This document shows, piece by piece, positions 31,601 to 64,000 of a stretch of DNA of 64,000 nucleotides (positions are counted from its first letter, which is position 1; the number at the start of each line of letters is the position of its first letter). Under the pieces are notes generated by a model that saw only the letters and a program-made list of their open reading frames with translations, ran no database searches and was not told the origin of the DNA. The position numbers were made by a program, and so were the translations under genes. Origin of the DNA: an uncultured cyanobacterium (GTDB lineage: Bacteria > Cyanobacteriota > Cyanobacteriia > CAKZMO01); contig CAVRCJ010000001.1 of NCBI GenBank assembly GCA_963719515.1, forward strand, positions 288,001 to 352,000, in the 5' to 3' direction.

Positions 31601-33883
31601 CTAACGCTCTACGACTTCAATAACTGTCGAGAAAACAGCAATCGCATCCGTGCTGATAGGCGTTTGGTCTTCAGCCATTGGCACCAAATCGAGACTTGCA
31701 GCGCTGCGGGAAACATCGCCCACATCGCCGAGTAAGCTATCCAAAATATCCAGCTCCTCCCCACGTAGCCCAACTGCCCCTCGCTTCTGGCCGCCCCGCT
31801 CAGCGATCGCCTTCAGCCCCCGTAAGGCGCGATTGAGCGGCTGACGGCTGACCAAGGTAAGCAATTCAACAAAGCCGCTGCCGCTCAATCGCAGCTCAAC
31901 CTCATCCTCTTGGCGCGGAACGACTAGCTCCTCGCCTGGGGCGATTAGGGCCGCTTCTGCCGGTGCGTCCCAATTGGCAGGATGAAGAACGACAATGTCG
32001 CCGCTGCCAGCAATGGCGATCGCGCTCAGATAAACGTCGGTGTCCTCATCATTGCGTACGCGAATTTTGACGTTCTCCCCCGCCTGAAAGGCCTGGGCCG
32101 CGATCGCAGCCTGGAAGCCCCGCCCTGCGGCCTGTGCCCCCCGACTGGCAATGGGAATCGCAGACCCCCGCCCGCCCTCTGCAAACAGCTCTCCGCTAAT
32201 GTTGAGGTTCGAGGCCGTGGATGCCATCTCCTGCAAAACCTTGGCGACCAATAGTGACTTCAAACGGTCCCCAAGTCGGCTGATGGCGGCAGTGATAGAT
32301 TCCCCAACAGGCCCTTCAGACTCAGACACGTACTCAGAAAAGTCGGGGGCAAATAGCGCTAGCGTCCCTAAGGGCGGTTGCTCGACGGCTCCAGCCTCAT
32401 CCATCAGCTGACGAATGTCTTCAGTAGTGCGGGCTAGATTAAACGCTACGTCGGCCTGGGTGGTTACCGGTTCAGCCGTGACGCGACGCTGAAGCGCTGA
32501 GCGGATAGCGGTCTCAGCCTCTGCACTCTCTTCGCTAAGGGACTCATGCAGGCCAATGCGCAGGGTGGGGTCGGGAATCGCCAACACCTGCTCCCGCAGC
32601 AGCATGCCTTCCGTGACAGTGAAGGACTCTCCCTCGACAAGGCCAGCCGTCCCGAGCAGACCGTTTCGTCTCGAAAGCCGGAGGCTGCCCAGCGGCGCAC
32701 CATCTGAACCCAGCGCGGTATAGATGGCGTCTGGAGCCGCCGCCTCTAGGTTTTGATACGCCGTGCCACCGAACCAAACTTCGATTTCAGGGCCGGAAGC
32801 AGTGGGTGTTGTTGTTCTAACGACGGCATCGGCAAAGGATCGAGAGGGCGCTAGAAAAAACAGGTTCGCCTGACTGTAGTTGCTGCCGGGGGCGTACTCA
32901 AAAATAGGAATCTGGGCGCTACGCTTTTGTGAGGTTGCTGCCGCTTTGGTGCTGCGGACCAGGTTGGTTCGAATGGTATCAGCAGGTTCAGCGTTAGGCG
33001 ACTGCCAAAGGTAGCTGGTGAGCAGGTAGGTGAAAATTCCCGATACTTTGCCCGACTCGTAGGGAAGCTCTAGGGCCACCTGGTCGCAGCTTGCTGAGCC
33101 GATGGCAACTCCTTTGGAGATGCCGAGCGATCGCCGCCGCTGAAACTCGTCTGGCTCCATTCCCAGGTCTTTCAGCCAGCGCTGCTGATTCTCAAGCTCG
33201 GCCTCGCTGGCCACTAGGGGTACGCCGCTGCGCGACAGCCGCGACTGCACCGCTCGCGCCTGGGCCGTGCCCCGGGTGCCTGCCCCGGAGAAGCAGCTGT
33301 CGAGCACCAGGGTGACGTTATCTGTAGGGATGCGCTCAGTGAGCAAAAAGAGCGATCGCCCCATGATATCGGGCACTACAATGCGATCGCCGGTTTGTCC
33401 CTCGGGGGTAATGTCTTGAGGCACTAGGGTACCGTTGAGTCCATCACCGCTGCTAGCCCCGCAGGCTTCAACGGTAATAGGGTCCGGATCTTCTACCTTA
33501 GACCCATGGCCAGAGTAGTGCACCACCACCACGTCGCCTGGCCGAGCCTGAGCGATGAGGTGCTCCTCGAATGCCTGCAGAATATTGGCGCGAGTCGGCT
33601 CTAAGGCTTCACCGTCGGCGACCTTGAGCACGTCGCTGGGGTTGAAGCCGTAGCGATGGACGAGCAGCTGGTACTGCATCTCAATATCCGTCAGGCAGCC
33701 TGAAAGAGTTGGGACGCTAGAGTCAGGGTAGTTGTTGATGCCGATAAGCAGAGCGAGCTTACGCGGCGTGGACTGGGCCACAGCGCGGTTGAACCGGCTG
33801 GCCTGCTGCAAAAAGCCTGCTTGGCTAAGGCCGATGGCTCCGAGGGCGGAACCGGTAAATTGGAGGAAGTGGCGACGCTTCAT
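31601..33883 (-). CDS. caspase-family (C14) protease with Tat signal and C-terminal DUF4384-like domain
   Basis: MKRRHFLQ Tat motif; KLALLIGINNY; catalytic HYSGHG and LDSCFSG; C-terminal VRNDEDTDVYL...VLHPANW. Confidence 0.92.
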   Translation of the reverse strand: MKRRHFLQFTGSALGAIGLSQAGFLQQASRFNRAVAQSTPRKLALLIGINNYPDSSVPTLSGCLTDIEMQYQLLVHRYGFNPSDVLKVADGEALEPTRANILQAFEEHLIAQARPGDVVVVHYSGHGSKVEDPDPITVEACGASSGDGLNGTLVPQDITPEGQTGDRIVVPDIMGRSLFLLTERIPTDNVTLVLDSCFSGAGTRGTAQARAVQSRLSRSGVPLVASEAELENQQRWLKDLGMEPDEFQRRRSLGISKGVAIGSASCDQVALELPYESGKVSGIFTYLLTSYLWQSPNAEPADTIRTNLVRSTKAAATSQKRSAQIPIFEYAPGSNYSQANLFFLAPSRSFADAVVRTTTPTASGPEIEVWFGGTAYQNLEAAAPDAIYTALGSDGAPLGSLRLSRRNGLLGTAGLVEGESFTVTEGMLLREQVLAIPDPTLRIGLHESLSEESAEAETAIRSALQRRVTAEPVTTQADVAFNLARTTEDIRQLMDEAGAVEQPPLGTLALFAPDFSEYVSESEGPVGESITAAISRLGDRLKSLLVAKVLQEMASTASNLNISGELFAEGGRGSAIPIASRGAQAAGRGFQAAIAAQAFQAGENVKIRVRNDEDTDVYLSAIAIAGSGDIVVLHPANWDAPAEAALIAPGEELVVPRQEDEVELRLSGSGFVELLTLVSRQPLNRALRGLKAIAERGGQKRGAVGLRGEELDILDSLLGDVGDVSRSAASLDLVPMAEDQTPISTDAIAVFSTVIEVVER

Positions 33884-33916: not shown

Positions 33917-34819
33917 TTATTGGGCAAGAATGTCTTGGAGCTTGGCTGAGAGACGCGAGAGATCCACGGCGTAGTTGACAACTCCGGCATTGGCCTCTCC
34001 TGCAGTAAACTCCGCTGAATTCAAGGCAACGATCGCCGGTTCGCCTTCTACAAAGCCAAGAATTGGTCCCCCCGAAGAGCCGCTAAAGGTATCGCAGTTG
34101 TGGCGCAAAAACTCGTCTTCGGCGCTGCCCAAGATGCTGCATCCGTCGTGGACGCTGGCTGTCATGCCGGGATTATCCGCTGGAAAGTCACCGGAGTAAC
34201 CTACAAGGATGTACTGCTCAGGGTTGTCAAGTAAGACCGACAGCGGCAGCACCTTCCAGGCTACGGTGCCGTAGCGCTCTCCTAAGGGCTGGTCTAGCTT
34301 GATGAAGGCCCAATCGTCGGGGTGGGGTGGCTGGGGGCGATCGCGAAAGTCTGTACCCGGCAATACTTCAACAGCGTTTGCGATGTCATCCTGCGACAGG
34401 ATTTCGCCATTGATGACGTTGGGCGCAAACTTAATGTCGCTGTAGAACTCGTGGGTTTCTGGGTCGACAACGCAGTGAGCGTTGGTCAGCACGATGTCAG
34501 TCTCAACCAGGGTGCCGCTGCAGTGACCGCTGCCGTCTGCGGTCTGAAAGTCGACCCGCCCAATAGCGGACCAAGGGTGACTGCGGCTAGTCATCACCAC
34601 GCGATCGTCCCGCTGACCAATGACGCCTCGGCTCCCGCCTTCAGTAGGGCTGCGGGCCTGCCCGAGTCCTTCTGGAACGAACGTCGTGGGGTCGGGGTCA
34701 AGGTTGAGTGAGCTGTCTAGGCTGGGCTGGGCCTGCACGGCGGCGAGACCGGCAAGGGCGGCTCCGGTGAAACCGGCGATCGCCAACAATACGTTGGTGG
34801 GTAGGCGATGATGAGTCAT
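33917..34819 (-). CDS. exported trypsin-like (V8/glutamyl endopeptidase-type) serine protease
   Basis: Signal peptide ending VQA; VIGQRDDR; catalytic TNAHC, DWAFI and GSSGGP. Confidence 0.9.
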   Translation of the reverse strand: MTHHRLPTNVLLAIAGFTGAALAGLAAVQAQPSLDSSLNLDPDPTTFVPEGLGQARSPTEGGSRGVIGQRDDRVVMTSRSHPWSAIGRVDFQTADGSGHCSGTLVETDIVLTNAHCVVDPETHEFYSDIKFAPNVINGEILSQDDIANAVEVLPGTDFRDRPQPPHPDDWAFIKLDQPLGERYGTVAWKVLPLSVLLDNPEQYILVGYSGDFPADNPGMTASVHDGCSILGSAEDEFLRHNCDTFSGSSGGPILGFVEGEPAIVALNSAEFTAGEANAGVVNYAVDLSRLSAKLQDILAQ

Positions 34820-35149
34820 GGTGGTGTTGAACAGGGGCAAAGAACGGTATGCGTAAAAATGGCTCAGTTGACGTTGCGAATCAAGGTGAACGCGGCCCAA
34901 AGACGCGGGTTGGGTGCTGCTCTATGGTGGTGAGCATGGTCTGCCGTAAGGCTTGGGCTTTGTCCACAGGGTTGTCGGGGTCTTGTCACAGGCAGTAGAA
35001 CTGCGGTTGCCTACGGAACTTCGAGCTTTCAGCCGCTTGAACTGTCACAAGCAACCGCGCCAACGCAATAGATCTCAACTAATTTTCCTTAGAAGAGGAT
35101 ACCGCAGCCACCCGACCCCTGGCGTCAGTGTTACAGAATTGTGAACAGC

Positions 35150-36007
35150 TCAAATCCGCGCCTGCTGCCGCTGCCGAATTGCATCGATATTCTCCTGAGC
35201 CTCCGCCAAATTCGGGTTCAGCGTCAGGGTTCGCTCAAACGCCGCGATCGCCTCCTCATTTCGCTCCAGCGCCATCAGCACCACGCCCTTGTAATACCAG
35301 CCGCTCACATTGCTAGCGTTGAGCTGCAGCACCCGCTCAAACGATAGTAGCGCCGTCTCCAGCTGCCCCAACTGCCCCGCCATTCTGCCCCGGTTTAGCC
35401 AAGCCCGCTCGAAGCTGGGGTTTAGCGTCACGGCTTTGTCGTAGGCCGCGAAGGCGTCCTCATAGCGCTCTAGCCGGGTGAGCGTAATCCCCTGGTGGAA
35501 CCACGCGTCGGCGTTGTCGGGATTGAGGGCGATCGCCTCCGCGTAGGCCCCTAGGGCCTCTTGGGGGCGACCCGCATCGTCGAGGGAAATGCCCAGCCAA
35601 ATCCAGGCGTATTGGTGGCTGCTGTCGAGGGTGGTTGCCTGTTTGAGGGACGCGATCGCTTCCTCGTAGCGCTCTAAGTGATACAGCGCGTAGCCTTTGC
35701 CGACGTGGGCTGGGGCGTGGGCTGCATTGAGGGCAATCGCTTCTTCAAAGGCGGCGATCGCGTCGGTATAGCGGCCTGCATCAATTGCGGCAATGCCCTG
35801 GTCCATCCAAGTTTGGAGGGTATCGGCGGTCTTCTGGGAAATGACTATGGGTGAGGCAAACTGCTGAGGGGTGGTGGTCGTTGGCACAGCTGCTAAGGAG
35901 CTAGGCCGATCCTGAAGCCCCATCGCCACGCTTTTAGGCGATGCGCCCAGCGTCAAGCTGGCCGTAGTGGATAGGAGTAATCCGATTCCGAGCTGAGTAA
36001 TACGCAT
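35150..36007 (-). CDS. exported tetratricopeptide repeat protein
   Basis: Signal-like N-terminus and about 6 canonical 34-aa TPRs. Confidence 0.88.
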   Translation of the reverse strand: MRITQLGIGLLLSTTASLTLGASPKSVAMGLQDRPSSLAAVPTTTTPQQFASPIVISQKTADTLQTWMDQGIAAIDAGRYTDAIAAFEEAIALNAAHAPAHVGKGYALYHLERYEEAIASLKQATTLDSSHQYAWIWLGISLDDAGRPQEALGAYAEAIALNPDNADAWFHQGITLTRLERYEDAFAAYDKAVTLNPSFERAWLNRGRMAGQLGQLETALLSFERVLQLNASNVSGWYYKGVVLMALERNEEAIAAFERTLTLNPNLAEAQENIDAIRQRQQARI

Positions 36008-36524: not shown

Positions 36525-36536
36525 AGTGCCATATCC

Positions 36537-38018
36537 GAATGGCACTGACATAAGCTGTATCAGGCTGCCAGTTTAGCTTTGAGGACAGAACGCGGTTGCT
36601 GCATGCGAGGAAAAGGCTTGGGTCTGCGTTTGACCACTCTCGGTTCGTGGCGATTGGGGCGAAAGGGAACGATGAGCTGAGCAATCAGACGCAGCAATAT
36701 CTGATACTGCTGGGAGCGTTGCTGGTGGGTTGCGCCAATAAATGCAGGACGGGCGTGATTCAGCTGCTGTCTTGTGCCCTGCAGCGACAAGCGCAATGCC
36801 GCTGCTGTTGAGTGCTCCGAGGCTTGCCACATCAAGGTGCGCAGCAGATTGTAGGCGAGCAGGTGCATCCATAGGTCCTTTTTGACTATCTGTGGGGTCT
36901 TGGCTGCAATCATCTCCATGCCTAGCGTGGTTTTGAGGTGCTTGAGGTTGACCTCAGTGGCCTGCCAGCGCTGGTGATAGAGGTCAATGAGCTTGGCCTT
37001 TGGATAGCGTTTGGGATCGCTTAAGGTGGTCACCACAATGATCTCAGTTGGCCGAAATCCGCGCTGAGTAATCAGTAGATGCACTTCCCTCACCTCCAGA
37101 TACAACGGCAGCGACTCAAACGCTGCGCTGCTCATTGAGGCTGGACAGCGGGCGGGGCGCTGCCAAACGACACGGTGGTCGCCAATGCCCAGCTTCTTGC
37201 CTCGGCGAAAGTCGCAGCGGCGAGCATGATGCTTGCGAAACACCCCATCAGCACCAGCCGCCTGGACAAGCGCTAAGTCAGCATAGGTGCCATAGGCGGA
37301 ATCAGCTACCACCACATCCTCTGGAGCCAAACAGGCATACAGTTGCCGCGCCAGTTGCCATTCGCTGGTGCCAAACGGAGCAATGGCCGCTTCGAGTACC
37401 GCCCCACTGTTCAGACAAAACCACACCACCACCCGGGCGATGGGAAACCCACAGCCGGGCTTTTGCGTACTCACCTGCGGATATTCCGCCTGATTGGCAG
37501 CAGTATCGCTCATCTGTACTCCGGTGCCATCAAACGCTTTCACCCGTCTGCCACACCAGTACTGCTCAACTGGTACTTGCGCGTGTAGGGCACTCGCGCT
37601 GCGCTTGAGTAACGATGGGAGAATCGCCCAGGGCAGCCGTTTGCGGGCTTTGCTATACCCTCCAGTATCCGATGACGGCACCGCCTCACCTGTCATCGCC
37701 ATCCAGGTGGTCACCCGCTTGACTGCGTTGCTCAGGCTGCTGTCACCATCTATCACTTGCGATATCCACGCCCACACAACCACCATCGGCGTGTAAAGCA
37801 CTTGTCGATAAGTTACTTGGTGTTCCTCTAGCACCTGGGCAATTTGAGATTCGCTGAGCACCTGGGCAAACGGCAGGCCCAGACTGTTTTGGTATTGCTG
37901 CTTGAGAATTTCGGCTCGATTCGGCATAGTAGAGACAGTATTTTGTGGCTTTGATCCCCTGATTGTCCCTAATCATGGGGCTCGAAGCCTTTTTTTGTCT
38001 CTTACGTCAGTGCCATTC
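36537..38018 (-). mobile_element. IS4-family insertion sequence, 1482 bp, 10-bp TSD TGCCATATCC
   Basis: TIR GAATGGCACTGAC(A/G)TAAG (17/18). TSD at 36527-36536 and 38019-38028. Confidence 0.93.
36560..37927 (-). CDS. IS4-family DDE transposase
   Basis: AFDGT, VADSAY and YHQRWQATEVNLKHLK (YREK-like motif). Confidence 0.93.
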   Translation of the reverse strand: MPNRAEILKQQYQNSLGLPFAQVLSESQIAQVLEEHQVTYRQVLYTPMVVVWAWISQVIDGDSSLSNAVKRVTTWMAMTGEAVPSSDTGGYSKARKRLPWAILPSLLKRSASALHAQVPVEQYWCGRRVKAFDGTGVQMSDTAANQAEYPQVSTQKPGCGFPIARVVVWFCLNSGAVLEAAIAPFGTSEWQLARQLYACLAPEDVVVADSAYGTYADLALVQAAGADGVFRKHHARRCDFRRGKKLGIGDHRVVWQRPARCPASMSSAAFESLPLYLEVREVHLLITQRGFRPTEIIVVTTLSDPKRYPKAKLIDLYHQRWQATEVNLKHLKTTLGMEMIAAKTPQIVKKDLWMHLLAYNLLRTLMWQASEHSTAAALRLSLQGTRQQLNHARPAFIGATHQQRSQQYQILLRLIAQLIVPFRPNRHEPRVVKRRPKPFPRMQQPRSVLKAKLAA

Positions 38019-38028: not shown

Positions 38029-38448
38029 CTACTGCCTGCCGTTGGGTTTATCCAACGCTGCAAATTCATACCTTGATTTATTAACGCCTCTCTTTGGTTT
38101 AGGAAGGCTGCACCAATGCACGTCGCCCAATGCTCGCGCTAGGGTGAGTGCCTCTTGGTAGCAGCAGTACGCGGCCTGAATCTGACCCAAATGCCAGTAG
38201 CAGCTCCCCAGCCGCTGAAAGATCTGCCGCTCTGCCTGAAAGTTGCCCAAAACCGTCCACAGCGTCAGCGCCGACTCTAGGTATGGGGCGGCGTCGGCGT
38301 ATTGACCTTGGTCATAGAAGGTCATCCCTGTGGTCTGTAGTACTAGGGCGCGGCTCTGCTGCTCGCGAGCGGTAGATGATGCTAGACAAATTTTTTCGGT
38401 GACGTGGTCGCGAAGCTGGCAAAGCAGGTTGACTAAATTTTTCATCAC
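38029..38448 (-). CDS. small TPR protein, probably C-terminally truncated
   Basis: Two TPR-like units, then a non-TPR tail after GDVH. Confidence 0.6.
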   Translation of the reverse strand: MMKNLVNLLCQLRDHVTEKICLASSTAREQQSRALVLQTTGMTFYDQGQYADAAPYLESALTLWTVLGNFQAERQIFQRLGSCYWHLGQIQAAYCCYQEALTLARALGDVHWCSLPKPKRGVNKSRYEFAALDKPNGRQ

Positions 38449-38631
38449 AGCTCTCCTAAATCTGAAAAGGTTCCTCTCTCTTGCTGATGCATACTTCTCG
38501 GCAAGGCAGACATATGGAAATCGTGTTGGCGCTTGCAGGCGTTTTAGCCTTCAGGCAAAGTTTCTGCTTCCATATCTTTTGCTAAACGAGAGCTATTTCG
38601 TAATGTCCCAAGGCGAACCTATAGGAGAGAT

Positions 38632-39111
38632 ATGATGTGCAATGCTGTGCTGCTTCACGTTTGGACGAGCGCTGCCCTGCCGCTGCTGGCGGTCCCCCAG
38701 GCAATCGCGGTGGATATTGGTCGCTATGTGGAGCATCAGACGAACAAAGCTGCCATTTTTAGCGCCGTTGGCGCTGGCCTGTGCGAGGTGGGTCATGTGT
38801 CTCGCGGCGTGGAGTGCCTGGAGCGATCGCGGGCTATCTACGTTGTTTTGGGCGATGAGCGGGCGGAGCGGCGAGTGCTGCTGCAGATGGGGGAGACCTA
38901 TCTGCAGGTGGGGCGCTTCACCCTGGCTATCTGCTGTTTTCAGGAGGCGCTTGCCCTAAGCCAGCGGCTGGGCCGGGTGGCGGAGGTGGAAGCGTTACGG
39001 CTGCTGGCGATAGGCTATGAGCAGGCGGCAATGCCGTTTTCGGCGGCGGATGTGACGCAGCAGGCGGCGCTGCTGGATGGCAGCGGCGTGGTGGATGTCC
39101 CAGTGCATTAG
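38632..39111 (+). CDS. small TPR protein
   Basis: TPR-like units LGDERAERRVLLQMGETY...AICCFQEAL, similar to the divergent neighbour. Confidence 0.65.
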   Translation: MMCNAVLLHVWTSAALPLLAVPQAIAVDIGRYVEHQTNKAAIFSAVGAGLCEVGHVSRGVECLERSRAIYVVLGDERAERRVLLQMGETYLQVGRFTLAICCFQEALALSQRLGRVAEVEALRLLAIGYEQAAMPFSAADVTQQAALLDGSGVVDVPVH

Positions 39112-39201: not shown

Positions 39202-39579
39202 CTACCGAATAGGCCGCTGCTGCACCAGGTAGCTCAGCACCTGACCGTGGGCGGGGGTGATGTGGACCCCCTTTGCGCCGATGGTGATCAGCGGTGTCCA
39301 GTAGTGGCGCTGTACGTAGTCCAGCAGATGGAGGCGGGCGATCGCCTCCTGGACGCCAGCGGGGGAGCCGATGAGCAGGTGCCGCAGGTGTGAGTCTTCG
39401 ACTGGTCCTGAAGGACCAACGCAGCCCGGAGCGGGGGAGGGCTCTAGCAGGGTGGGGATGTTGGGCTGGGCTTCTAGAGGTGAGTCTAGCCGCGTGGACT
39501 GGTCCGCAGCGAGCTGTTGGCGCACTGCGAGTTGGGCGGCCTCTTGAGGAAGAGACAGCGCGGGGTATTGAATTGTCAT
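39202..39579 (-). CDS. conserved cyanobacterial hypothetical protein
   Basis: LRHLLIGSPAGVQEAIARLHLLDY...WTPL...QVLSYL, a family I recognise; GGAG RBS upstream. Confidence 0.75.
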   Translation of the reverse strand: MTIQYPALSLPQEAAQLAVRQQLAADQSTRLDSPLEAQPNIPTLLEPSPAPGCVGPSGPVEDSHLRHLLIGSPAGVQEAIARLHLLDYVQRHYWTPLITIGAKGVHITPAHGQVLSYLVQQRPIR

Positions 39580-39676
39580 GAGGGACTCCAGTTTTATGTG
39601 TTGGGTTGGAGCCCCCCAAAGAATCTGGGCATTCCAGACGTGTTAAGGGCTCGGTATGACTCAGCTACAATCGACG

Positions 39677-39753
39677 CTAGGTCATCCAAACAGCTCACTC
39701 TGTTCTGGTGGCTTAGGGGCTGCATGTTGCTTGCGACAGCATGCGGCTCCGCC
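39677..39753 (+). ncRNA. candidate antisense sRNA (SymR-like two-hairpin architecture)
   Basis: TACAAT -10 at 39666-39671. Two hairpins (39677-39716, 39716-39750) whose imperfect pairs are G-U only on the + strand. Confidence 0.5.
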
Positions 39754-39806
39754 AGACCGACTCTTTGGGAGACTAGAACCATGGGGACCACGGCTCATAG
39801 CTCCAT

Positions 39807-39835
39807 AAGGTAGATCATTTGTGCGCCGATGGCAA
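39807..39835 (-). promoter_or_regulatory. sigma70-type promoter TTGCCA-N17-TACCTT for the 39579 gene leader
   Basis: -35 at 39835-39830, -10 at 39812-39807, exact 17-bp spacer. Confidence 0.5.
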
Positions 39836-40004
39836 GAGCCTTTTGGATCTTTGCTCAGGAGCGCTGCTACTGCTGAATGGCTTCGTTCACCGCTGCCTGC
39901 AACAGGTCATCGCTCATCCCGTGTCGCTTCAAGCTAACAATCAGGGCAGAGACGAAGGATGCCTATAATCGAGAGGAGCGGTTGCAGCTAAGGGGACAAA
40001 GGCC

Positions 40005-40421: not shown

Positions 40422-40744
40422 AAGATTATCGGATCCATATTAAGCAGCTGCTGACTAAATATGGGAGCTATTCTTATCGCTACGGCGAAGTCGAATCTCA
40501 AACCCTATTCGATACAGACCATGATCATTATCAGTTAGTCCGAGTTGGCTGGGAAAATAAGCAGCGGGTCTACGGCTGCGTGCTTCACTTAGATATTAAA
40601 GACGGCAAGGTTTGGATTCAGTGGAATTCTTCGGATATTGATATTGGTGAGGAGCTGGTGGCGCTCGGTGTGCCTAAGCAAGATATTGTGATTGGGTTTC
40701 AGCCTGAGTATTTACGCCAGTATTCGGAGTATGCGGTGGGGTGA
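40409..40744 (+). CDS. xisI: XisI family protein
   Basis: FDTDHDHYQL, HLDIKDGKVWIQ and GVPKQDIVIGF; overlaps xisH. Confidence 0.93.
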   Translation: MASIEDYRIHIKQLLTKYGSYSYRYGEVESQTLFDTDHDHYQLVRVGWENKQRVYGCVLHLDIKDGKVWIQWNSSDIDIGEELVALGVPKQDIVIGFQPEYLRQYSEYAVG

Positions 40745-55900: not shown

Positions 55901-56432
55901 GAAACTGACTCACATTGAACTGCTCAATCCCCTCCTGGAACAGCCGATCGGCCTCTGCCTTGCGATCATCCTCAACTGGTGACTCCGCCTCACTGCCCTG
56001 AGATTGTCCTTCTGTGGCCACCTCCCGCACCATCAGCCGATACCGCCCCCGATTCTCCGCATCAGCCGCATTAGCAATCACCATGTAGGTGCCATCCTCC
56101 GGCAGCGTCACCACCAGGCCCGCATTCGTCGTCGTTTCGTCCAAATTGTTGTTCTGAGCGATCGCCTCCCCCTGCGGGTCTAGCAGCAGCAGGTAGGTGT
56201 CAAACGCCTCGCTCTCCATCACAATCTGCAAGGTCTGGCCCGCTCGCCCTTCCACAGGATAGGCATCATAGAGGCTGTCATCGTCTGGAACAACGCGATC
56301 GCCCTCCTCCAGCACCCCTTCCACCTGCAAAATCGGCTCCGCCTCCTGCGCCAGCACCCCGCCCGCCACCATCCCCTCTACCACAAGCGCCACTGCCGCT
56401 ATGCCAATCCACGTGATGAGGAAACGCATCAA
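52911..56432 (-). CDS. exported PPC + TPR + CHAT protease
   Basis: Signal ending VLA; PPC-like FDTYLLLLDPQG...LPEDGTY; ten 40-aa TPR units; HFATHA and LSACETG. Confidence 0.93.
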   Translation of the reverse strand: MMRFLITWIGIAAVALVVEGMVAGGVLAQEAEPILQVEGVLEEGDRVVPDDDSLYDAYPVEGRAGQTLQIVMESEAFDTYLLLLDPQGEAIAQNNNLDETTTNAGLVVTLPEDGTYMVIANAADAENRGRYRLMVREVATEGQSQGSEAESPVEDDRKAEADRLFQEGIEQFNVSQFREALQSWEQALEIYRKIGDRQGEGNALGNLGLTYNNLGQYQQAIAFYEQSLDIVREIGNRRGEGNALGNLGSAYRNLGQYQEAIALYEQRLEIAREIGDRRGEGNALGNLGSAYRNLGQYQEAIAFYEQHLEIAREIGDRRGEGNALGNLGSAYSNLGQYQEAIAFYEQHLEIAREIGDRQGEGVALGNLGTTYLRLGRYQQAIAFYEQHLEIAREIGDRQGEGVALGNLGSAYRNLGQYQEAIAFYEQQLDIVREIGDRRGEGNALGNLGSAYDNLGQYQQAIALYEQRLEIAREIGDRRGEGNALGNLGIAYDNLGQYQQAIAFYEQQLDIVREIGDRRGEGNALGGLGIAYLNLGQYQQAIAFYEQHLEIAQEIGDRRGEGAALGNLGLAYRNLGQYQQAIASYQQALAIHQDIGDRAAQGTWLSNIGNLLTDQNHPQLAILFLKQSVNVREDIRDGLRDLPTEQQQSFTDTIESTYRKLADLLLQQNRILEAQQVLDLLKVQELDDYLRGVRGNATTASGVEYWQPEQEILERFNARQQQAIELGQELTQLRQTPESDRTPAQQARIRELVDLEQELTRQFNNFIDSDEILTLISQLSTTTRQQTLNPADIAALRNDLGQLNAVLLYPLILDDRLELVLTTPDSPPLRRTVENVTREDLNRAILAFRQALENPNSDVITPAHQLYQWLVEPLEDDLANLDIDTIIYAPDGQLRYVPLAALHDGETWLAQRYAVNNITARSLTDLAAQPAKSPSVLAGAFADETLSYPVQVGQRSVDFQGLPFAGIEVETLIASLPNITPFLDQDFSLAAVRSRLNEHDIIHFATHAAFVPGVPEDSFILFGNGDRPTLADVRDWSLQNVDLVVLSACETGLGGFGNGEEILGLGYQFQRAGARATLASLWQVNDQGTQVLMTAFYDALQQGESKSRALQLAQQTLIAQGEATSSEDDGTADAIAAPQGGGPATIVPTGARASSTGLSHPHYWAPFILIGNGL
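54648..55847 (-). repeat. 10 x 120-bp intragenic tandem repeat (TPR units)
   Basis: Near-identical units at DNA level, each DRxGEGxALGNLGxAYxNLGQYQxAIAxYEQxLEIAREIG. Confidence 0.95.
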
Positions 56433-56656: not shown

Positions 56657-58798
56657 ATGAAGCGACCTACGGGAACCCCGCTACTAGGCGCGATCGCCCT
56701 ATCCACTGGCCTGCTCACCCTGCTCGCCGCCCACCGCCAGCCCGCCACCGCCCAGTTCCAGCCCGCCCCCCAGGACTCCTATTCCTTCTTCGGCCAGCAG
56801 ATTCCGCTGACGACCCAGTCCGACGTCGTTGCCGTCGCCTTTGCGCCACAGTCCGGCACGCGGGGCGTTGGGCAGCCGGCCTACGCTCAGCTTGAGGCCG
56901 ACCTTCGGGGAGAGCCTACAGGAACGCGGGGCGGTCGCTCCCCCTCCCCCTTGCGCTTCGACGTGTGGGTCAGTCCCTTAGGCGATCGCTACGCCTTGGT
57001 CACCACTGAAGACGGGGAAACCGTCCGTCAGGCGATCGCCCAGCGTCCCTACGTCGAGGCAACTCTGCCCGTGTTGACGGTGGGCAGTGGGGAGGACGCT
57101 GCGCAAGTGGTGCTACCCAACGAGATTTTGCTCAGCCTGGAGCCGGATTTGTCGGGCAGCGAGCGGCAGGCGCTGCTCAATCGCTACGGCCTAGAGGTGG
57201 TGAGGCCCCTACAGTTTGCCCGCGATCGCTACCTCGTGCGATCGCGGCGCGAGGTGGGGCTAGCGGTGCTGGAGGTGGCCAATCGCCTCCACGGCGCTGT
57301 GGGAGTTGAGTCCGCCACGCCCAACTTCATTCAGTCGGTGCCCTACCGGGTGCAGGCGCAGGATATCGAAGACGCGACGTTGAGCGATCGCCCCAACGCC
57401 GCCGCCCAGCTCCAGCAGCTTCTGGGCTCATTCCCCAAAATCGACACCGCTTTCCCCAGCAGCCTGTCTCCCCTCGCCTGGCACCTCGACAGTACGCCTC
57501 AGCGCGGCAGACTGCAGCCCCGCACCGACATCCGCGCCACGGAAGCCTGGGGCGAGGGCAACGGCGGCGAGGGCGTAGTGGTAGCCGTTATCGACAGCCT
57601 TATCCAGTGGGACCACCCCGACCTAGCGCAAAACCTCTACTCCACCCAAGATCACCCCGACCGCTACCCCGGCGAAGAGTACGGCTGGGATTTCACCAGC
57701 GAGGCCAACTGCCCAAACGCCCAGCCCGACTGCATTCCCGGCGACCCCGATACCCGCATCAGCGCCGCCGAGGTGGACCTGCTACGCCCCCACCTGCAAA
57801 ACACCTTCCAGCTTTCAGACGCCGCCCTGCTGGAGACCTACAGCGGTTTGGCAGGGCGGATCAAGGAGCGCTATCCCAGCCTCTCCAGCGCCCGCACCGC
57901 TAGCCTCATCCGCAACCTCATTCGTGGTGATATCTCGTCCGAGTTCCACGGCACCTGGTCCGCCGGGGTAGTGGCTGCCCATCCCCAGGGCGGGGAGGGG
58001 GCGATTGGGGTTGCACCTATGGCCAAGATTTTGCCGGTGCGGGTATTTGGCATTGAGGGGGAAATCACCACAGCGCGGCTGATTGAAGCGGTGGGCTATG
58101 CCGCCGACCGAGGCGCGGATGTAATCAACATGAGCTTGGGTAGCGCGGTACCCGACCAGGCGTTTGTTGACCAGATTTTCGCCGTTTTAGACGAGAACCC
58201 CGAGCTTGTGATTGTCGCTTCGGCGGGCAACGACAGCGTCGACGGCGTGGGCTTTCCCGCCGCGACGCCGGGGGTGCTCTCGGTGGGGGCGACCAATCTG
58301 GAGGGCCAGCGCACTTACTACAGCAGCTACGGCGGGCGGCTCGACGTGGTGGCCCCCGGTGGGGAGACAAATCTGTTCCAGCAGGGCGGCATTCTCACCA
58401 CGGGGGGCACTTGGGTCGATGGGTTTTGGAGCGCTTTAGAGGCCCCGCCCTACGGCTGGGGTGCGGCCCTAGACCCGTTAGGTAAGTACGTCCAGGTTCA
58501 GGGCACCTCCTTCTCGGCTCCGGCGGTTTCCGGGGTGGTGGCGCTGATGAAGGGGGTAAACCCGTCGCTGGAGCGCGATCGCCTGCTGGCGGTTTTGCGG
58601 GAGACGGCGAGCTATGAGGGCCTGACGCTCACCCGCGCGGACCTAAACCGCTACCGACTGCAGCGGGAGGTAGGTCTGACGCTGATGGAGGACCGGGTAT
58701 CGGGCCTATTTCCGTTCCCGGAGCCGATTTCGCCAGAGGAGTATTTCTTTGGTGCGGGGTTGGTGGACGCGGAAGCGGCAGTGGAGGCGGTGCGGTAG
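56657..58798 (+). CDS. exported S8 subtilisin-like serine protease
   Basis: Signal peptide and propeptide; catalytic VAVIDS, FHGTWSAG and QGTSFSAP; oxyanion SAGND. Confidence 0.93.
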   Translation: MKRPTGTPLLGAIALSTGLLTLLAAHRQPATAQFQPAPQDSYSFFGQQIPLTTQSDVVAVAFAPQSGTRGVGQPAYAQLEADLRGEPTGTRGGRSPSPLRFDVWVSPLGDRYALVTTEDGETVRQAIAQRPYVEATLPVLTVGSGEDAAQVVLPNEILLSLEPDLSGSERQALLNRYGLEVVRPLQFARDRYLVRSRREVGLAVLEVANRLHGAVGVESATPNFIQSVPYRVQAQDIEDATLSDRPNAAAQLQQLLGSFPKIDTAFPSSLSPLAWHLDSTPQRGRLQPRTDIRATEAWGEGNGGEGVVVAVIDSLIQWDHPDLAQNLYSTQDHPDRYPGEEYGWDFTSEANCPNAQPDCIPGDPDTRISAAEVDLLRPHLQNTFQLSDAALLETYSGLAGRIKERYPSLSSARTASLIRNLIRGDISSEFHGTWSAGVVAAHPQGGEGAIGVAPMAKILPVRVFGIEGEITTARLIEAVGYAADRGADVINMSLGSAVPDQAFVDQIFAVLDENPELVIVASAGNDSVDGVGFPAATPGVLSVGATNLEGQRTYYSSYGGRLDVVAPGGETNLFQQGGILTTGGTWVDGFWSALEAPPYGWGAALDPLGKYVQVQGTSFSAPAVSGVVALMKGVNPSLERDRLLAVLRETASYEGLTLTRADLNRYRLQREVGLTLMEDRVSGLFPFPEPISPEEYFFGAGLVDAEAAVEAVR

Positions 58799-58879
58799 GG
58801 ATGAGGGGCGATCGCTTTCCCATACCTTCTCTTGGCCGAGAGGTATACACTGCTATGTGTCTCGGTCGGAGCAATTCTC

Positions 58880-61800
58880 ATGCGGTTTTCTGTCTTGTGG
58901 TTGGGTTTGACGGTGCTGATGGTGGAGGGGGCGATCGCTCCTCGCGTCCTCGCACAGTCTGAGGGGTCTGCACCGTCAGTGCAGACTGAGGGGGAGGCGT
59001 CGCTTGAGATAAGCGAGGCTGAGGCGCTGCTAGCGGAGGGCGATCGCCTATTCTATCAAGGCCGCCTTCTAGAGGCCCTAGAAACACTAGAGCAAGCCCG
59101 AAACCTGTATCAGGAGCGTGGCGATGCCTTGGGCGAGGCGAACGCGCTGGTCTCCTTATCTCTTGTGCAGGGGTGGCTATCTGAGTATGAGGAGGGGCGA
59201 TCGCTGGTACAGGCTGCCCTTGATATCTATCAGAGTCTAGAATCTGATGCCGAAACGCAATTGGCGGAGGCCCGTGCGCTACATCGGCTCGCAGTCACAC
59301 AATACGGGCTTGACGAGCGGGAGACGGCGCTGGAAACCCTAGCGCGATCGCGGAGCCTGTTTCGCGAGTTGGGAGCATCGGTGGATGAGGGAATTGCCTT
59401 ACTGGATACAGGAGCTATCAGCATCCGCGAGGGAGAGCCAGAGGATGGATTAGAGCCCTTGAATGAGGGCCTAGCCTTGCTAAATAATACTAGCGCCGAT
59501 GCTGAAGCTGGTTCAATTGCCGAGCTACGTCGGGAGTACTACAAAGCACTGGGTCTAGCCTGGATTGGCCGGGGCTATGGTCTGCTGGAGCAGCCGAATG
59601 AGGCATTGGAGGCGATCGCCGCGTCGCTGACAATAAGCCGGAGCATTGATGCTCGACTGGTTGAGAATTCTGCCCTATTGTCCAAAGGCCTGATCTATGA
59701 AAATCAGCAAGAGTTTGATTTGGCTGAGGAGGCCTACAAGCAGGCACTGACTGTCCTACAGCCGATAGGGAGCATGATTTCTGAGGGGAACGTATGGAAT
59801 CGGCTCGGGAATCTCTATAAGCAGCAAGAACAATATGATGAGGCTTTGGCGGCTTATCAACAGGCGCTCTCCCTGTTTCAGCAGGCGGAAAACTTGGAAG
59901 AAATTGGGTCTGCGTGGTACTTCATTGCTACGGTGCATCAATCCCTAGAGCAGTTCGATGAAGCGATCGCCGCCTATCAAAAATCGATTGACATATTTAC
60001 CGCATCAGACGAACTCGGCTTGAGCGGAATCGTTCTTCAGGCTCTTGGAACTCTATACCAAATCCAAGAGCGATATGAGGAGGCGCTAGCAACGTATCAG
60101 CAAGCATTACCCATTCTTCAGGAGGCAGAAGAGCAAGAGCAGGAGGGATGGACTTGGTACTGGATCGCTCAAAACTACACCCTACAGAATCAACAGGAAG
60201 AGGCTATTGAGGCTTACCAGCGATCGCTGACTATATTCACTGAATTGGAGCAGCCCCGCACGCAGGCAACCATGCTCAAGCTGATGGGCGACACCTATCA
60301 GAATCAAGGCCAGTTTGAGCCAGCCATTGAGGCCTACGAGCAAGCCTTAGCGATTCGTCGTGAGGTAGGGGACCAGCCCGAGGAAGCGGTGACTCTCAAT
60401 AGTATTGGTCTTGTGCGCGACAGCCAAGAACGCTACGACCAGGCTCTGGATGCCTATGAGCAAGCTTTAGCCATTGTCCGAGGGATGGACGAGCGTTCGG
60501 GAGAAGACATCATTCTTAGTAATGTTGGCAGCATCTATGAGGACCAGGGACGCTATGACGAGGCCTTAGAGACCTACGAGCAGGTTCTGGACATTCGCCG
60601 GGAGGCGGGCGATCGCGCTGGGGAATGCACGACTCTCAATACCATTGGTTTGATATACGATGATCTTGACCAATATCTCCAAGCCTTAGAAACTCACCAG
60701 CAAGCCTTAATAGTCTGCCGCGAGGTAGGCGATCGCGCGACAGAGAGTTCCGTGCTCGGCAACATCGGCATAGTCTACCGGGCTTTAGGACGCTATGAAT
60801 CCGTCCTGGATGTCTTTCAGCAGGCCTTAATCATTAAGCGGGAGCTAGGCGATCGCGCTGGGGAAGGCCTTGTCCTCAATCATATTGGATTGACTCACAG
60901 CGATCTAGGGCAGTATCTTCAGGCTTTAGAGGCCTATGAGCAATCGCTAGCTATCCGCCGAGAGTTGGGCGATCGCGCTGGGGAAAGTGCTGTCCTCAAT
61001 AATATTGGTGCTATATATAAGGCTCAAAGCCGATATGAGCTAGCCCTCGAGCTTTATGAGCAGTCGCTAGCGATTGACCGAGAGATTGGCGATCGCATTG
61101 GGGAAAGCACAACCCTCGCCAATATAGGTGTAGTGCATAATGTGCAAGGCCGCTATGAGCTGGCCCTAGAACTTACTCAGCAAGCGTTGGCAATCAAACG
61201 CGAAGTGAAGGATCGCGCTGGGCAAGGTGCAGTTCTCGATAATATTGGCTCGGTGTACAACAGCTTAGGGCAGTATGAACTTGCCCTTGAGTTCTACCAA
61301 CAGGCTCTAGAAATTCGCCGAGAGGTGAGCGCTAGGTTAGGGGAGAGCATCACCCTCAGTAGCATCGGTCAAGTCTATATCAACACAGGGCAATATCAAC
61401 AGGCGCTGGACACCTTTCAGCAGGCGCTAGACATCAGTCAGCAGCTCGGCAGTCCTGCCCAAGAGGGAGCAATCCTCAACGATATCGGCATAGTGTATGA
61501 CAGATTGGGGCGCTATCAACCGGCTCTAGAAACTTATGAGCAGGCCTTGGCCATTAACCGAGAGATTGGCAATCGCGCTGGTGAAGGCACTACTCTCAAC
61601 AACATTGGCTTAACTTACGGCAATTTGGGACAGTATCAGGTAGCGCTAGACCTCTTTCAGCAGTCCCTGGCTATCAAGCAGGAGATTGGCGATCGCCCTG
61701 GAGAGGGGACTACCTTCAACAATCTTGCTGGCATCTACGGCGGCTTGGGCCAATATCAGCTCTCGCTAGAGACCTACGAGCAGGCCCTCGCTATCCTTCG

Positions 61801-64000
61801 AGATGTTGGCGATCGCGCTGGAGAGGGTAATATCCTCAACAACATCGGCTCAATCCACAACAGTCTTGGGCGCTACTCGCTAGCGCTGGAGACTTTTGAG
61901 CAGGCGCTGGCCATTCAACAAGATATCGGCGATCGCGATCGGGAAGCCACGACCCTCAACAATATTGGTGGCGTCTACCAAAACCTAGCGCAGTACGAAA
62001 AGGCACTAGATTTCTATCAGCAGGCCCTTACCATTACCCAGGAACTTGAGGATCGCGCCGGGGAGGGCGACATCCTCAACAATATAGGTTTTGCTTATAA
62101 AAGCTTGGGACAGTATCAGCAAGCGCTGAATCTTTACGAGAAATCCCTAGCCATTCGCCGAGAAATTGGCGATCGGGTTGGGGAGGGAGTCAACATGGGC
62201 AATATTAGCTTAGTCTACTTCGATTTAGGACAGCCTCAGCTGGCTCTGAAGACCTCCCAGGAAGCCTTAACCATCCTTCGAGACATCGGCGCTCGTGCCG
62301 AGGAGGGAAGTGCTATCAATATTCTTGGTGGGCTTTATGACAGCTTGGGACAGTATCAGCAGGCGCTGGAGCTCTACGAGCAGTCCCTAGCCATTCGCCA
62401 AGAAATTGGCGATCGCCTTGGCGAAGGAATTACCCTCAACAATATTGGCGTGACCTATGGCCAGCTAGGGCAGTATCAGCTTGCACTGGAGACCGCTCAG
62501 CGAGCCTTAGCCATCTCCCAAGATATCGGTGCTCGCGCTGAGGAAGCAAATACCCTGACTAACATCGGCGTGCTGTATGCCGATCTTGAACAATATCAGC
62601 GCGCCTCAGAGTTCTATCAGCAGGCTCTGGCCATCCGGCAGGAGATTGGCGACCAGGCAGGGGTAGGCCACACGCTCCACAACATCGGCGCAAACTACCG
62701 TGAACTAGGGCAGTATTCTCAAGCGCTAGCGTTTCATCAACAGGCCGTCGCCATTGGTCAAGACATTGGTAATCAGGCCGTAGTAGGCTCTGCCCTCAAC
62801 GGAGTAGGCCTAGCCTACGAGAAGCTCGCTCAATACGAAGAAGCGGTAGCGGCCTATCAGCAAGCTTTAGCTATTCGCCAAGAAGTGGGCGATCGCGCTG
62901 GAATAGGACAAACCTTAGGTGATATGGGCTCTGCACTCAGCGCTCTAGATCAGCCTGAACTCGCCATTCTCTTCCTCAAGCAGTCGGTGAATCAGTACGA
63001 AGCCATCCGCGATGACATTCGTGGCCTCAGCGACGAGCAGCAGCAGTCCTATACTGATACGGTTGAAGAAACCTACCGCGAACTCGCCGATCTGCTGCTG
63101 CAGGAAAACCGTATCCTCGAAGCCCAGCGCGTTTTGGACCTGCTAAAAGTCCAAGAACTCGACGACTACCTAGAAAACGTCCGTAGCACTCCCGAAACTC
63201 GTCAAGGTGTCGAGACGCTGCCTCCAGAAAACGAACTTCTCGAAGAATACAATGCCCGTCTCGCCCGAGCCGTTGAGCTGGGCAAACAGCTCCAGGCTAT
63301 CCCCAACGACCTCACCCAGCGCACCCCTGAGCAAGAGCAGCAGCGCCGCGACATCGAAGACGAGCAAAAGGCGATTCTCAGAGAATTTCTCGACTTCATC
63401 GACACACCTCAGGTCCAAGACCTCGTCGCCCAGCTGCGGCAAACCACCGAAGGAGGAAATCTAGAACCTGCCCTGCTCCGCAGCCTCCAAGACGACCTAC
63501 TAGAGCTAGGGGAAGACGCCGCCCTCATCTATCCTCTCGTCCTTGAAGATCGACTAGAGCTAGTGCTCGTCACACCTTATGCCCCGCCCATCAGTCGCCC
63601 CGTCGGCGTCGGCAAGGCCGAGTTAAATGAAGCCATCTTGGCCTACCGCCAAGCCTTGGATAACCCCACGAGTAATCCTGAACCGCTGGCTCAACAGCTC
63701 TACGACTGGCTCATCCGTCCACTAGATGCTGCCCTGCAAGAAGCCGATACCCAAACCCTGATTTACGCCCCCGACGGGCAACTACGCTATATCCCGCTGG
63801 CCGCCCTTCATGACGGGGAGCAGTGGCTCGCCGAGCGATACCGCGTCAACCACATCACCGCCCTAAGCCTCGCCGACTGGGATGACGCCTCTCAAGCCCC
63901 AAAAATTCTCGCTGGAGCCTTTGGGTCGCAGGGGCAAAGCGTTGAGGTTACGGGCGATCGCCTCACGTTTGACGGCTTGCCGTTCACTATCGACGAGGTT
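58880..64000 (+). CDS. giant exported TPR-CHAT protein (>1700 aa, runs off window)
   Basis: Absent from the ORF track (no stop in window). GGAG RBS, signal MRFSVLWLGLTVLMVEGAIAPRVLA, >20 TPR units, EAQRVLDLLKVQELDDYL and YAPDGQLRYIPLAALHDG. Same frame at start and window end. Confidence 0.9.
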   Translation, partial: MRFSVLWLGLTVLMVEGAIAPRVLAQSEGSAPSVQTEGEASLEISEAEALLAEGDRLFYQGRLLEALETLEQARNLYQERGDALGEANALVSLSLVQGWLSEYEEGRSLVQAALDIYQSLESDAETQLAEARALHRLAVTQYGLDERETALETLARSRSLFRELGASVDEGIALLDTGAISIREGEPEDGLEPLNEGLALLNNTSADAEAGSIAELRREYYKALGLAWIGRGYGLLEQPNEALEAIAASLTISRSIDARLVENSALLSKGLIYENQQEFDLAEEAYKQALTVLQPIGSMISEGNVWNRLGNLYKQQEQYDEALAAYQQALSLFQQAENLEEIGSAWYFIATVHQSLEQFDEAIAAYQKSIDIFTASDELGLSGIVLQALGTLYQIQERYEEALATYQQALPILQEAEEQEQEGWTWYWIAQNYTLQNQQEEAIEAYQRSLTIFTELEQPRTQATMLKLMGDTYQNQGQFEPAIEAYEQALAIRREVGDQPEEAVTLNSIGLVRDSQERYDQALDAYEQALAIVRGMDERSGEDIILSNVGSIYEDQGRYDEALETYEQVLDIRREAGDRAGECTTLNTIGLIYDDLDQYLQALETHQQALIVCREVGDRATESSVLGNIGIVYRALGRYESVLDVFQQALIIKRELGDRAGEGLVLNHIGLTHSDLGQYLQALEAYEQSLAIRRELGDRAGESAVLNNIGAIYKAQSRYELALELYEQSLAIDREIGDRIGESTTLANIGVVHNVQGRYELALELTQQALAIKREVKDRAGQGAVLDNIGSVYNSLGQYELALEFYQQALEIRREVSARLGESITLSSIGQVYINTGQYQQALDTFQQALDISQQLGSPAQEGAILNDIGIVYDRLGRYQPALETYEQALAINREIGNRAGEGTTLNNIGLTYGNLGQYQVALDLFQQSLAIKQEIGDRPGEGTTFNNLAGIYGGLGQYQLSLETYEQALAILRDVGDRAGEGNILNNIGSIHNSLGRYSLALETFEQALAIQQDIGDRDREATTLNNIGGVYQNLAQYEKALDFYQQALTITQELEDRAGEGDILNNIGFAYKSLGQYQQALNLYEKSLAIRREIGDRVGEGVNMGNISLVYFDLGQPQLALKTSQEALTILRDIGARAEEGSAINILGGLYDSLGQYQQALELYEQSLAIRQEIGDRLGEGITLNNIGVTYGQLGQYQLALETAQRALAISQDIGARAEEANTLTNIGVLYADLEQYQRASEFYQQALAIRQEIGDQAGVGHTLHNIGANYRELGQYSQALAFHQQAVAIGQDIGNQAVVGSALNGVGLAYEKLAQYEEAVAAYQQALAIRQEVGDRAGIGQTLGDMGSALSALDQPELAILFLKQSVNQYEAIRDDIRGLSDEQQQSYTDTVEETYRELADLLLQENRILEAQRVLDLLKVQELDDYLENVRSTPETRQGVETLPPENELLEEYNARLARAVELGKQLQAIPNDLTQRTPEQEQQRRDIEDEQKAILREFLDFIDTPQVQDLVAQLRQTTEGGNLEPALLRSLQDDLLELGEDAALIYPLVLEDRLELVLVTPYAPPISRPVGVGKAELNEAILAYRQALDNPTSNPEPLAQQLYDWLIRPLDAALQEADTQTLIYAPDGQLRYIPLAALHDGEQWLAERYRVNHITALSLADWDDASQAPKILAGAFGSQGQSVEVTGDRLTFDGLPFTIDEV

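Follow-up and report, generated by a model that had tools for sequence, protein, structure and literature searches.

What joins the exported proteases that lie side by side in the genome of an uncultured cyanobacterium, and to what are they coupled? The window, the whole 64,000-nucleotide stretch that was analysed, corresponds to positions 288001–352000 of contig C1 in a source assembly of 5.28 Mb in 21 contigs, and the nearest named relatives of its genes are cyanobacterial. An earlier note on this DNA listed a caspase-family protease, a trypsin-like protease, a subtilase, CHAT and TPR proteins, and a DUF928-like protein, a gene content that Pfam searches confirm, and read them as an extracytoplasmic zymogen cascade for defence or cell–cell signalling. 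Our analysis reveals, at the centre of the island, a sigma70-like gene and a DUF1822 gene that were absent from that list, and leads us to propose, with a probability of about 0.5, that an exported, Arg-specific zymogen network may feed receptor–protease–sigma signalling. In particular, the island would comprise two linked halves: exported clan-CD proteases (TPR-CHATs and a Tat-signal orthocaspase) acting outside the cytoplasmic membrane, and a receptor–sigma core.

The sigma-like gene (49804–51213, minus strand) encodes a predicted divergent sigma70-like protein comprising a sigma2-like domain, an insertion, and a sigma4-like domain, assigned with Atlas, Foldseek, VIA, and hhalign. The protein has no Pfam or NCBIfam sigma match. 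Its Atlas neighbours carry sigma70 region 4; the top Foldseek matches of its model are sigma factors, with a best E of 6e-3 and, at E 0.001 or better, no match for this model or for the DUF1822 model; VIA-align gives middling Z scores of 7.0–7.2, including a sigma2 match at Z 7.0 (root-mean-square deviation 3.4, 92 aligned residues), and a middling Z of 5.3 for model residues 295–384 against AlgU; and hhalign relates the protein (89.6%) to a paralogue that is encoded on contig C3 and itself passes TIGR02937. A PDB sequence search with the sigma alignment returned nothing meaningful. The insertion between the sigma2-like and sigma4-like parts (model residues 157–267) contains the most conserved motif of the family and has SANT/Myb-like matches (ISWI, Z 7.2; GT-1, Z 6.5).

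The other core genes encode a possible partner, a receptor, and an exported protein. The DUF1822 protein (48465–49784, minus strand; Pfam above cut-off) is a candidate anti-sigma factor and substrate, and its model comprises an alpha/beta domain and a beta-sandwich, with no TPR array. The N-terminal domain of the model (residues 35–192) has a weak nuclease-fold likeness (D212, Z 7.1; I-Ssp6803I, Z 6.1); the nuclease-fold match (Z 7.1) and the beta-sandwich matches appear too weak for a function to be assigned. The receptor protease (46086–48472, minus strand) has a predicted EACC2–CHAT–transmembrane (TM)–CHASE2–TM arrangement, assigned by Pfam and hydropathy, with its catalytic dyad intact. 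Among 49 relatives, CHASE2 is present in all 49 and CHAT in 48, and H257 and C301 are invariant; a conserved N-terminal domain of ~100 aa, which from the architecture is a candidate EACC2 domain, precedes CHAT in the 49 aligned sequences. Between CHAT and CHASE2 lies a stretch of moderate hydrophobicity, which scores at least 1.6 in 38 of 49, and 2–3 C-terminal helices come after CHASE2 in 46 of 49; the best hydrophobic window within the CHAT part reaches 1.6 in only 11 of 49. The CHAT–CHASE2 membrane protein of the earlier note is thus present, but it is frameshifted in this copy, has no signal peptide, and probably holds its CHAT domain in the cytoplasm. The DUF928 protein (45337–46089, minus strand; weak Pfam match, Atlas) is predicted to be exported and has a Pro/Gly linker that ends in a conserved Arg ahead of a folded domain with two conserved Cys, R79, C91, and C247 each being kept in at least 90% of 39 sequences.

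This core recurs across related loci. Of the 80 best among 429 related loci, 77 contain DUF1822, 50 the EACC2-CHAT receptor (42 of the 56 that extend far enough downstream), and 36 DUF928; of 44 full-length receptors, 35 are accompanied by DUF928. The core matches the EACC2 system that Kaur et al. (2021) described computationally (PMC8195603). Specifically, the sigma-like gene, DUF1822, and an alpha+beta domain–caspase–CHASE2–TM protein are common to both, and the variable C-terminal sensor (here CHASE2 plus TM helices) and adjacent DUF1822/ECF-like sigma genes of that description are both present here. In three rows of the source data for Figure 3, two more genes follow downstream, one labelled 'TM+beta_rich+TPRs' and the other TPRs+CASPASE (PMC8195603). 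The paper proposes autopeptidase activation; the DUF1822 model here is free of TPRs; the subtilase, the DUF4384 caspase, the dead CHAT described below, export of the partners, and shared Arg sites were not found in the searched text and supplements of PMC8195603. In the literature searched, mostly papers outside subscription, neither the island as a whole nor the shared Arg sites are described; what is known is the computational EACC2 core, and what is new, as far as these searches show, is the exported protease arm and the conserved Arg at likely cut sites. Because the conserved centre is a membrane receptor-protease and a sigma factor, a wholly periplasmic or extracellular system, as first suggested, is unsupported.

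A second operon in the same genome (G000:C3:133176-145294; L140:3176-15294) carries a sigma gene that passes TIGR02937, an unbroken CHAT–CHASE2 receptor with genes in the DUF1822 and DUF928 positions, a gene for a filamentous-haemagglutinin TpsA, and a divergent Omp85/TpsB-like gene. TpsA lies within 10 kb in 7 of the 80 sigma loci.

The predicted exported half of the island comprises proteases with intact catalytic residues. An orthocaspase (C14; 31601–33883, minus strand; Pfam and translation) carries a twin-arginine (Tat) signal and a C-terminal DUF4384; its His-Cys dyad is intact, with Arg-Gly just past the catalytic Cys, and among 40 orthologues 38 keep the dyad, 37 the Tat motif, and 37 the post-Cys Arg. 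A Sec-signal, chymotrypsin-fold protease that resembles glutamyl endopeptidases (33917–34819, minus strand, by start position; Pfam match on the open reading frame (ORF) 33917–34900) has an intact triad, and R64, H115, D169, and S249 are invariant in all 18 aligned sequences. A putatively exported subtilase (S8; 56657–58798, plus strand; Pfam and alignment) with an intact triad belongs to an island-linked clade and has a prodomain loop with repeated T-R-G; the triad pattern is present in 72 of 80 proteins examined. Three putatively exported TPR-CHATs complete the set, each with the CHAT dyad intact: one split by an insertion sequence (IS) (40909–45279, plus strand; Pfam on both parts, junctions), one of 1173 aa (52911–56432, minus strand; Pfam) with an extra N-terminal domain that we take to be PPC-like, and one of 1922 aa (58832–64000, plus strand) that ends 600 bases beyond the window.

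Export of these proteins is predicted from a motif and hydropathy heuristic applied to N-termini. A Tat-like (RRHFL) or Sec-like N-terminus is present in 7 of the 8 protease-family proteins, as seen in translations and a hydropathy scan, in agreement with the earlier claim that most of the proteases carry signals. These features are kept in orthologues: the Tat motif in 18 of 18 C14 proteins, and a hydrophobic N-terminus in 42 of 47 DUF928, 8 of 10 S8, and 28 of 36 TPR-CHAT proteins. In contrast, the same heuristic finds a hydrophobic N-terminus in 6 of 91 sigma-like, 4 of 85 DUF1822, and 2 of 51 EACC2-CHAT proteins. We therefore predict that the TPR-CHATs, caspase, serine proteases, and DUF928 are exported.

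Conserved arginines occur at the positions where the zymogens might be cut. In the trypsin-like protease, R64 is invariant (18 of 18) inside a variable stretch at the propeptide junction; I67-G68 aligns with residues 3–4 of the glutamyl endopeptidase chain 1p3c_A, which we take to start at the mature N-terminus, placing G65 at residue 1. Given this invariance and register, the trypsin zymogen looks built for a cut after Arg. Of 80 subtilases examined, 67 were parsed, and 56 of these carry a T/S-R-G/S site in the prodomain loop; in a control set of 728 segments, taken from 104 other proteins that look exported, the share is 3.2%. Similar sites are carried by DUF928, DUF1822, and the caspase, whose post-Cys Arg is given above. 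DUF928 has an Arg before the first Cys in 50 of 50 parsed sequences, followed by G or S in 32; DUF1822 keeps R303 in at least 90% of 68 sequences, with the consensus M-R-S-P, in a modelled coil between its two domains; and the receptor has an invariant R79. When motifs of the form X-G/S that stay conserved within otherwise variable flanks are compared as a control, Arg in the X position gives 4 of 7 families and no other residue more than 1; the Arg sites of the sigma and EACC2 families sit in more conserved flanks (0.59 and 0.49). There is precedent for such cuts: the cyanobacterial CHAT protein HetF cleaves PatU3 at the R117–S118 bond, and the M-R-S-P of DUF1822 resembles that site, R117-S118-P119 (PMC9457339), while orthocaspases favour Arg at P1 (PMC8283722). 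Taken together, the conserved Arg in the trypsin junction and in the subtilase prodomain supports activation of these putative zymogens by an Arg-specific protease.

Gene identities, co-location, conserved export motifs, catalytic residues, and conserved Arg sites are what was computed, and onto them we place the following scheme. The exported CHATs and the caspase would cut after Arg in loops of the form T/S-R followed by G, S, or A, thereby maturing the trypsin-like protease, the subtilase (at its prodomain), and caspase zymogens, and also processing exported DUF928. Processed DUF928 would bind and act on the CHASE2 domain of the receptor, whose cytoplasmic CHAT domain would then cut DUF1822 at its conserved Arg, and this cut would release the sigma70-like factor from its anti-sigma partner and change gene expression. 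The trigger would likely be envelope damage or a foreign protein. We consider the outer zymogen step probable and better supported than the link through DUF928 and DUF1822, which we put forward tentatively, at somewhat less than even odds. Of the zymogen cascade proposed earlier, zymogen activation thus gains support from the conserved Arg sites, but the order from TPR-CHAT to caspase to serine protease, and a sensor role for TPRs, do not.

The genes of the island are co-conserved, as a check of the neighbourhood in the phylum and in selected loci reveals. Two outcomes that the earlier note named as refuting its reading, genes that are not co-conserved and proteins that are not exported, are therefore not what is seen, to the extent that sequence can tell. 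In a phylum sample of 200 genomes, 8 contain the subtilase clade, 21 the caspase, 20 the sigma family, and 10 the trypsin; the 8 subtilase genomes contain the caspase in 8 of 8 and the sigma gene in 7 of 8. Subtilase, caspase, and sigma gene lie within ~30 kb in 5 of these 8 genomes, representing four families, and in the other 3 the genes are on separate short contigs or there is no sigma match. We further analysed 34 subtilase loci, comprising 33 of the 76 matches from 251 genomes of one family and one locus from a relative of the source genome. These loci contain a TPR-CHAT-type CHAT in 27, the caspase in 20, DUF1822 in 12, DUF928 in 12, the sigma gene in 10, and the trypsin in 2, with at least one partner in 30 of 34; a rough chance model, which assumes copy numbers and ignores kinship, predicts per 34 loci 0.3 for the caspase, 0.4 for the sigma gene, and 3.7 for CHAT. 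In metagenomes, a partner is present in 35 of 56 subtilase loci and in 21 of the 28 that are at least 10 kb long. A common order is sigma gene, DUF1822, receptor, DUF928, small TPR gene, TPR-less CHAT, TPR-CHAT, subtilase, TPR-CHAT, and caspase. The trypsin loci have a same-strand upstream TPR-CHAT in 10 of 14, directly adjacent in 7; the idea that the trypsin is unlinked to the island was dropped, the gene being mostly far from the sigma gene, yet linked to a TPR-CHAT. Genomes sampled at the level of the order were too fragmented for linkage counts. Intact copies of the island exist in closed genomes, and experimental tests are therefore feasible.

Several observations weigh against a joint pathway of this kind. 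The subtilase loci were picked for long contigs, many come from one family, and the sets overlap, a few records recurring between them; the sigma core often has no exported protease nearby; gene order and strand vary between loci; and the subtilase, caspase, and sigma gene are found within ~7 kb in none of the 14 trypsin loci. The sigma assignment consists of weak fold scores and one paralogue, and the matches listed include no hidden Markov model link between DUF1822 and PatU3 or between the sigma-like protein and HetZ. The TPR-CHATs have no conserved R-G/S site, and the Arg of DUF928 often precedes Pro (SRP in 10 and PRP in 2 of 50), a poor P1' residue for many proteases. Subtilases commonly process themselves. 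The orthocaspase MaOC1 self-activates (PMC8283722). Craspases cut after Met or Leu (PMC11506125), and for that reason the Arg specificity of the island CHATs is something that we infer.

The proteases might also be an output rather than an input: the receptor and sigma factor would use CHASE2 to sense envelope stress or a small molecule, and the neighbouring proteases would be their regulon, with no feedback on the receptor, activating themselves or each other locally and remodelling surface proteins or attacking competitors. The sigma core is indeed frequently found without exported proteases (within 10 kb, TPR-CHAT in 15, caspase in 4, subtilase in 3, and trypsin in 1 of 80 loci), the subtilase gene often adjoins the sigma gene or is divergent from it, an arrangement that would suit a regulated target, and the self-activation of MaOC1 and the description of CHASE2 as a small-molecule receptor domain (PMC8195603) point the same way. 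Such a regulon leaves unexplained, however, the Arg linker of DUF928, its export signal, and its tight pairing with the receptor, as well as the presence of the same Arg motif in both halves of the island, and we consider it somewhat unlikely.

The exported network may also contain a catalytically dead member. The stand-alone CHAT (51356–52804, minus strand, by start position, CHAT-domain alignment, and tree), which the earlier note counted among the proteases, is present as a putatively exported, TPR-less protein, but it is predicted to be a pseudoprotease: Asn occupies the catalytic His column, with the Cys retained. Long CHAT proteins retain His and Cys in 104 of 108, and the dyad is lost in 11 of 19 TPR-less CHATs of 400–520 aa and kept in 8, 3 of which resemble pieces of broken TPR-CHATs. 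Ten of the 11 dyad-less CHATs form a single clade (SH-aLRT 100). In a quick tree, the dead CHAT of the window falls outside this 10-member clade and groups with its own TPR-CHAT neighbours, and on that placement, in the quick tree only, orthology to the dead clade of the relatives was rejected. Dead TPR-less CHATs thus appear to have arisen at least twice in the same setting, and such convergent loss of the dyad suggests a regulatory role; in our scheme the dead CHAT would be a likely regulator of the exported proteases. The window copy may instead be a decaying duplicate. A PDB sequence search with the dead CHAT gave no match.

Two further observations concern this gene and its kin. Just upstream of its start, window positions 52803–52893 contain two direct copies of a 42-nt sequence, 81% alike and 49 bases apart. 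A separate clade of exported TPR-less CHATs keeps His-Cys; its genes lie upstream of, and on the strand opposite to, the sigma gene (L012, L024, L029, L034, L042).

The island of the window is a partly damaged copy, with the receptor and one TPR-CHAT broken as written. An IS element (41731–43047, plus strand; identified by its junctions and repeats) has 13-bp terminal inverted repeats, a 9-bp target duplication, and six genome copies, and its ends are also present in contigs of the sequencing runs. This element splits a single gene into the ORF 40909–41736 and the TPR-CHAT ORF 43114–45279; some of the TPR-only genes listed earlier are real, but 40909–41736 is the 5' part of this TPR-CHAT. An IS4-family transposase (36560–37927, minus strand; NCBIfam NF033592 above cut-off) has three more near-identical genome copies by blastn. 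The reading frame of the receptor shifts at a 9-base homopolymer run (46643–46651), and the receptors of relatives are single ORFs of ~790–950 aa. In public contigs from four DNA runs, which give partial cover, no listed piece spans the run; since 4 of 213 conserved control genes of this assembly likewise match in two frames, the frameshift could be an assembly error.

Damage of this kind would also fit an accretion hot spot, at which independent modules (TPR-CHAT plus trypsin, caspase, or subtilase; the sigma core) pile up through TPR recombination and IS elements, with no joint pathway. This copy carries two IS insertions and a frameshift, several other copies are broken, gene order is fluid, trypsin loci lack the other partners, and the distribution is patchy, with the subtilase in 1 of 16 family relatives, many of which have incomplete genomes; gene content is modular. 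Against accretion, the same set recurs in at least four families, a long common order recurs within one family, a dead TPR-less CHAT seems to have arisen at least twice in this setting, and unrelated passengers seldom recur: 556 unassigned neighbours yield 13 clusters present in at least 4 loci, which from their sequence starts look like general regulators, transporters, and mobile genes. We regard accretion as distinctly unlikely.

The proposed signalling resembles known systems in part. HetF–PatU3–HetZ of Anabaena PCC 7120 likewise has a membrane protein, its CHAT in the cytoplasm and another domain in the periplasm, that cuts a partner after Arg, PatU3 sequestering HetZ and the cut freeing a regulator encoded in the same operon; HetF differs in having periplasmic TPRs instead of CHASE2 and no exported proteases (PMC9457339). 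The receptor was rejected as a HetF orthologue: that of the window has no NF045509 match, and its paralogue reaches 25 bits, where the cut-off is 1200. In Myxococcus xanthus DdvA–DdvS, a periplasmic TPR-CHAT is tied to release of an extracytoplasmic function (ECF) sigma factor, but as a single transmembrane anti-sigma protein cut by RseP, a chain that unites a cytoplasmic zinc anti-sigma domain, a TM helix, and the TPR-CHAT (PMC11506125). In the island, by comparison, the TPR-CHATs are separate, putatively exported proteins with signal-peptide-like N-termini and no anti-sigma domain in Pfam searches, and a second, probably cytoplasmic CHAT sits on the CHASE2 receptor. DdvA, the one periplasmic TPR-CHAT in the literature compared, has no known trigger (PMC11506125). 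Among cyanobacterial orthocaspases, the C14+DUF4384 architecture is catalogued (23 proteins), with a preference for Arg at P1, and YS pseudo-orthocaspases carry Tat-like N-termini, whereas the window enzyme keeps His-Cys; the accessible text of these papers contains no description of this neighbourhood (PMC8283722, PMC6426788).

Other bacterial caspase-fold cascades in the literature compared are tied to CRISPR or CBASS sensors. In the Haliangium type III-B CRISPR/CBASS SAVED-CHAT/PCaspase system, one locus encodes a CHAT together with a C14 caspase and a sigma factor, and the CHAT cleaves and activates the caspase when SAVED senses a cyclic oligoadenylate (bioRxiv 2023.06.23.546230). For such an activation step, the island shows adjacent genes and conserved Arg sites. 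That system differs from the island in its SAVED domain and its CRISPR/CBASS link, in place of which the island has TPR scaffolds, export signals, and serine proteases. A CRISPR link of the island was rejected: as the earlier note had stated, the locus is CRISPR-free, with no CRISPR-like array in the 28–64 kb part of the window and no Cas1 nearby, the sole genome match being a fragment on contig C5. No SAVED, type III CRISPR effector, or CD-NTase was matched by Pfam or PADLOC among the scanned locus proteins, and for the core proteins PADLOC gave only generic caspase, subtilase, and TPR matches.

Suicide-type antiphage defence, in which a promiscuous executioner caspase would kill the cell as in SAVED-CHAT/PCaspase or gasdermin systems, is to be weighed against these negatives. 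In its favour, the Haliangium system combines the same protease folds with a sigma factor (bioRxiv 2023.06.23.546230), a defence island of Myxococcus is under the control of a periplasmic TPR-CHAT (PMC11506125), and Kaur et al. place EACC2 systems among conflict systems (PMC8195603). The Tat motif of the caspase, however, points away from cytoplasmic targets, and no effector stood out or recurred among the 556 unassigned neighbours. Because the search turned up neither a conserved toxin or nuclease nor a gasdermin-like effector, the defence role suggested earlier lacks direct support, and we judge cell suicide very improbable.

The island is set within a wider cluster. CHAT genes are clustered above chance, 8 of the 22 genome matches lying inside ~43 kb of 5.28 Mb, and this cluster extends beyond the window almost to the contig end. 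Past the window end, Pfam identifies three further TPR-CHATs, an M48 peptidase, and a haem peroxidase. Specifically, this flank (L001:8698-19739 and L002:1-10509) contains a transposase, an RTX-repeat haem peroxidase, a TPR-CHAT, a leucine-rich repeat (LRR)-TPR-CHAT, a separate LRR ORF, an unknown 484-aa ORF, a TPR-M48 peptidase, PD-(D/E)xK-like, Uma2, TPR-CHAT, and NYN genes. Within the window, a small TPR-only protein (35150–36007, minus strand; Pfam) is predicted to be exported from its translated N-terminus and hydropathy, and small TPR genes with signal peptides recur in the islands of relatives. Two short divergent TPR ORFs without signal peptides (38029–39111; Pfam and translations) are probably remnants. 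A XisH–XisI pair (40005–40744, plus strand; Pfam) has counterparts within the protease islands of L092, L143, L154, and L228. Positions 39500–39916 have high contig depth and many variants in the sequencing runs, which suggests a small repeated element, and positions 15846–20704 contain two TnpB/IS605 OrfB genes and an IS200 transposase around HD-domain and LysR genes. Promoter and terminator scans of the locus were at or below chance level.

A further reading, which we hold to be doubtful, extends the proposed pathway by analogy with Toll–Spaetzle logic: an extracytoplasmic cascade of caspase-fold and serine zymogens, tuned by the dead CHAT as a convergently evolved decoy, would mature DUF928 at an Arg as a secreted pro-ligand for the CHASE2 receptor, whose own cytoplasmic protease would then cut the anti-sigma factor at a similar site. 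If this reading were true, CHASE2 would gain a protein ligand made by proteolysis, and an alarm could spread along the shared periplasm of a filament.

For the exported network feeding receptor–protease–sigma signalling, the consequences are more specific. The scheme names exact candidate cut sites, namely R64 of the trypsin-like protease, the prodomain loop of the subtilase, the linker Arg of DUF928, and R303 of DUF1822. CHASE2 receptors gain a candidate ligand in DUF928, and candidate substrates emerge for the numerous TPR-CHAT proteins of cyanobacteria that are so far unexplained. More broadly, the island points to an exported multi-protease network that may be wired to transcription in many cyanobacteria.

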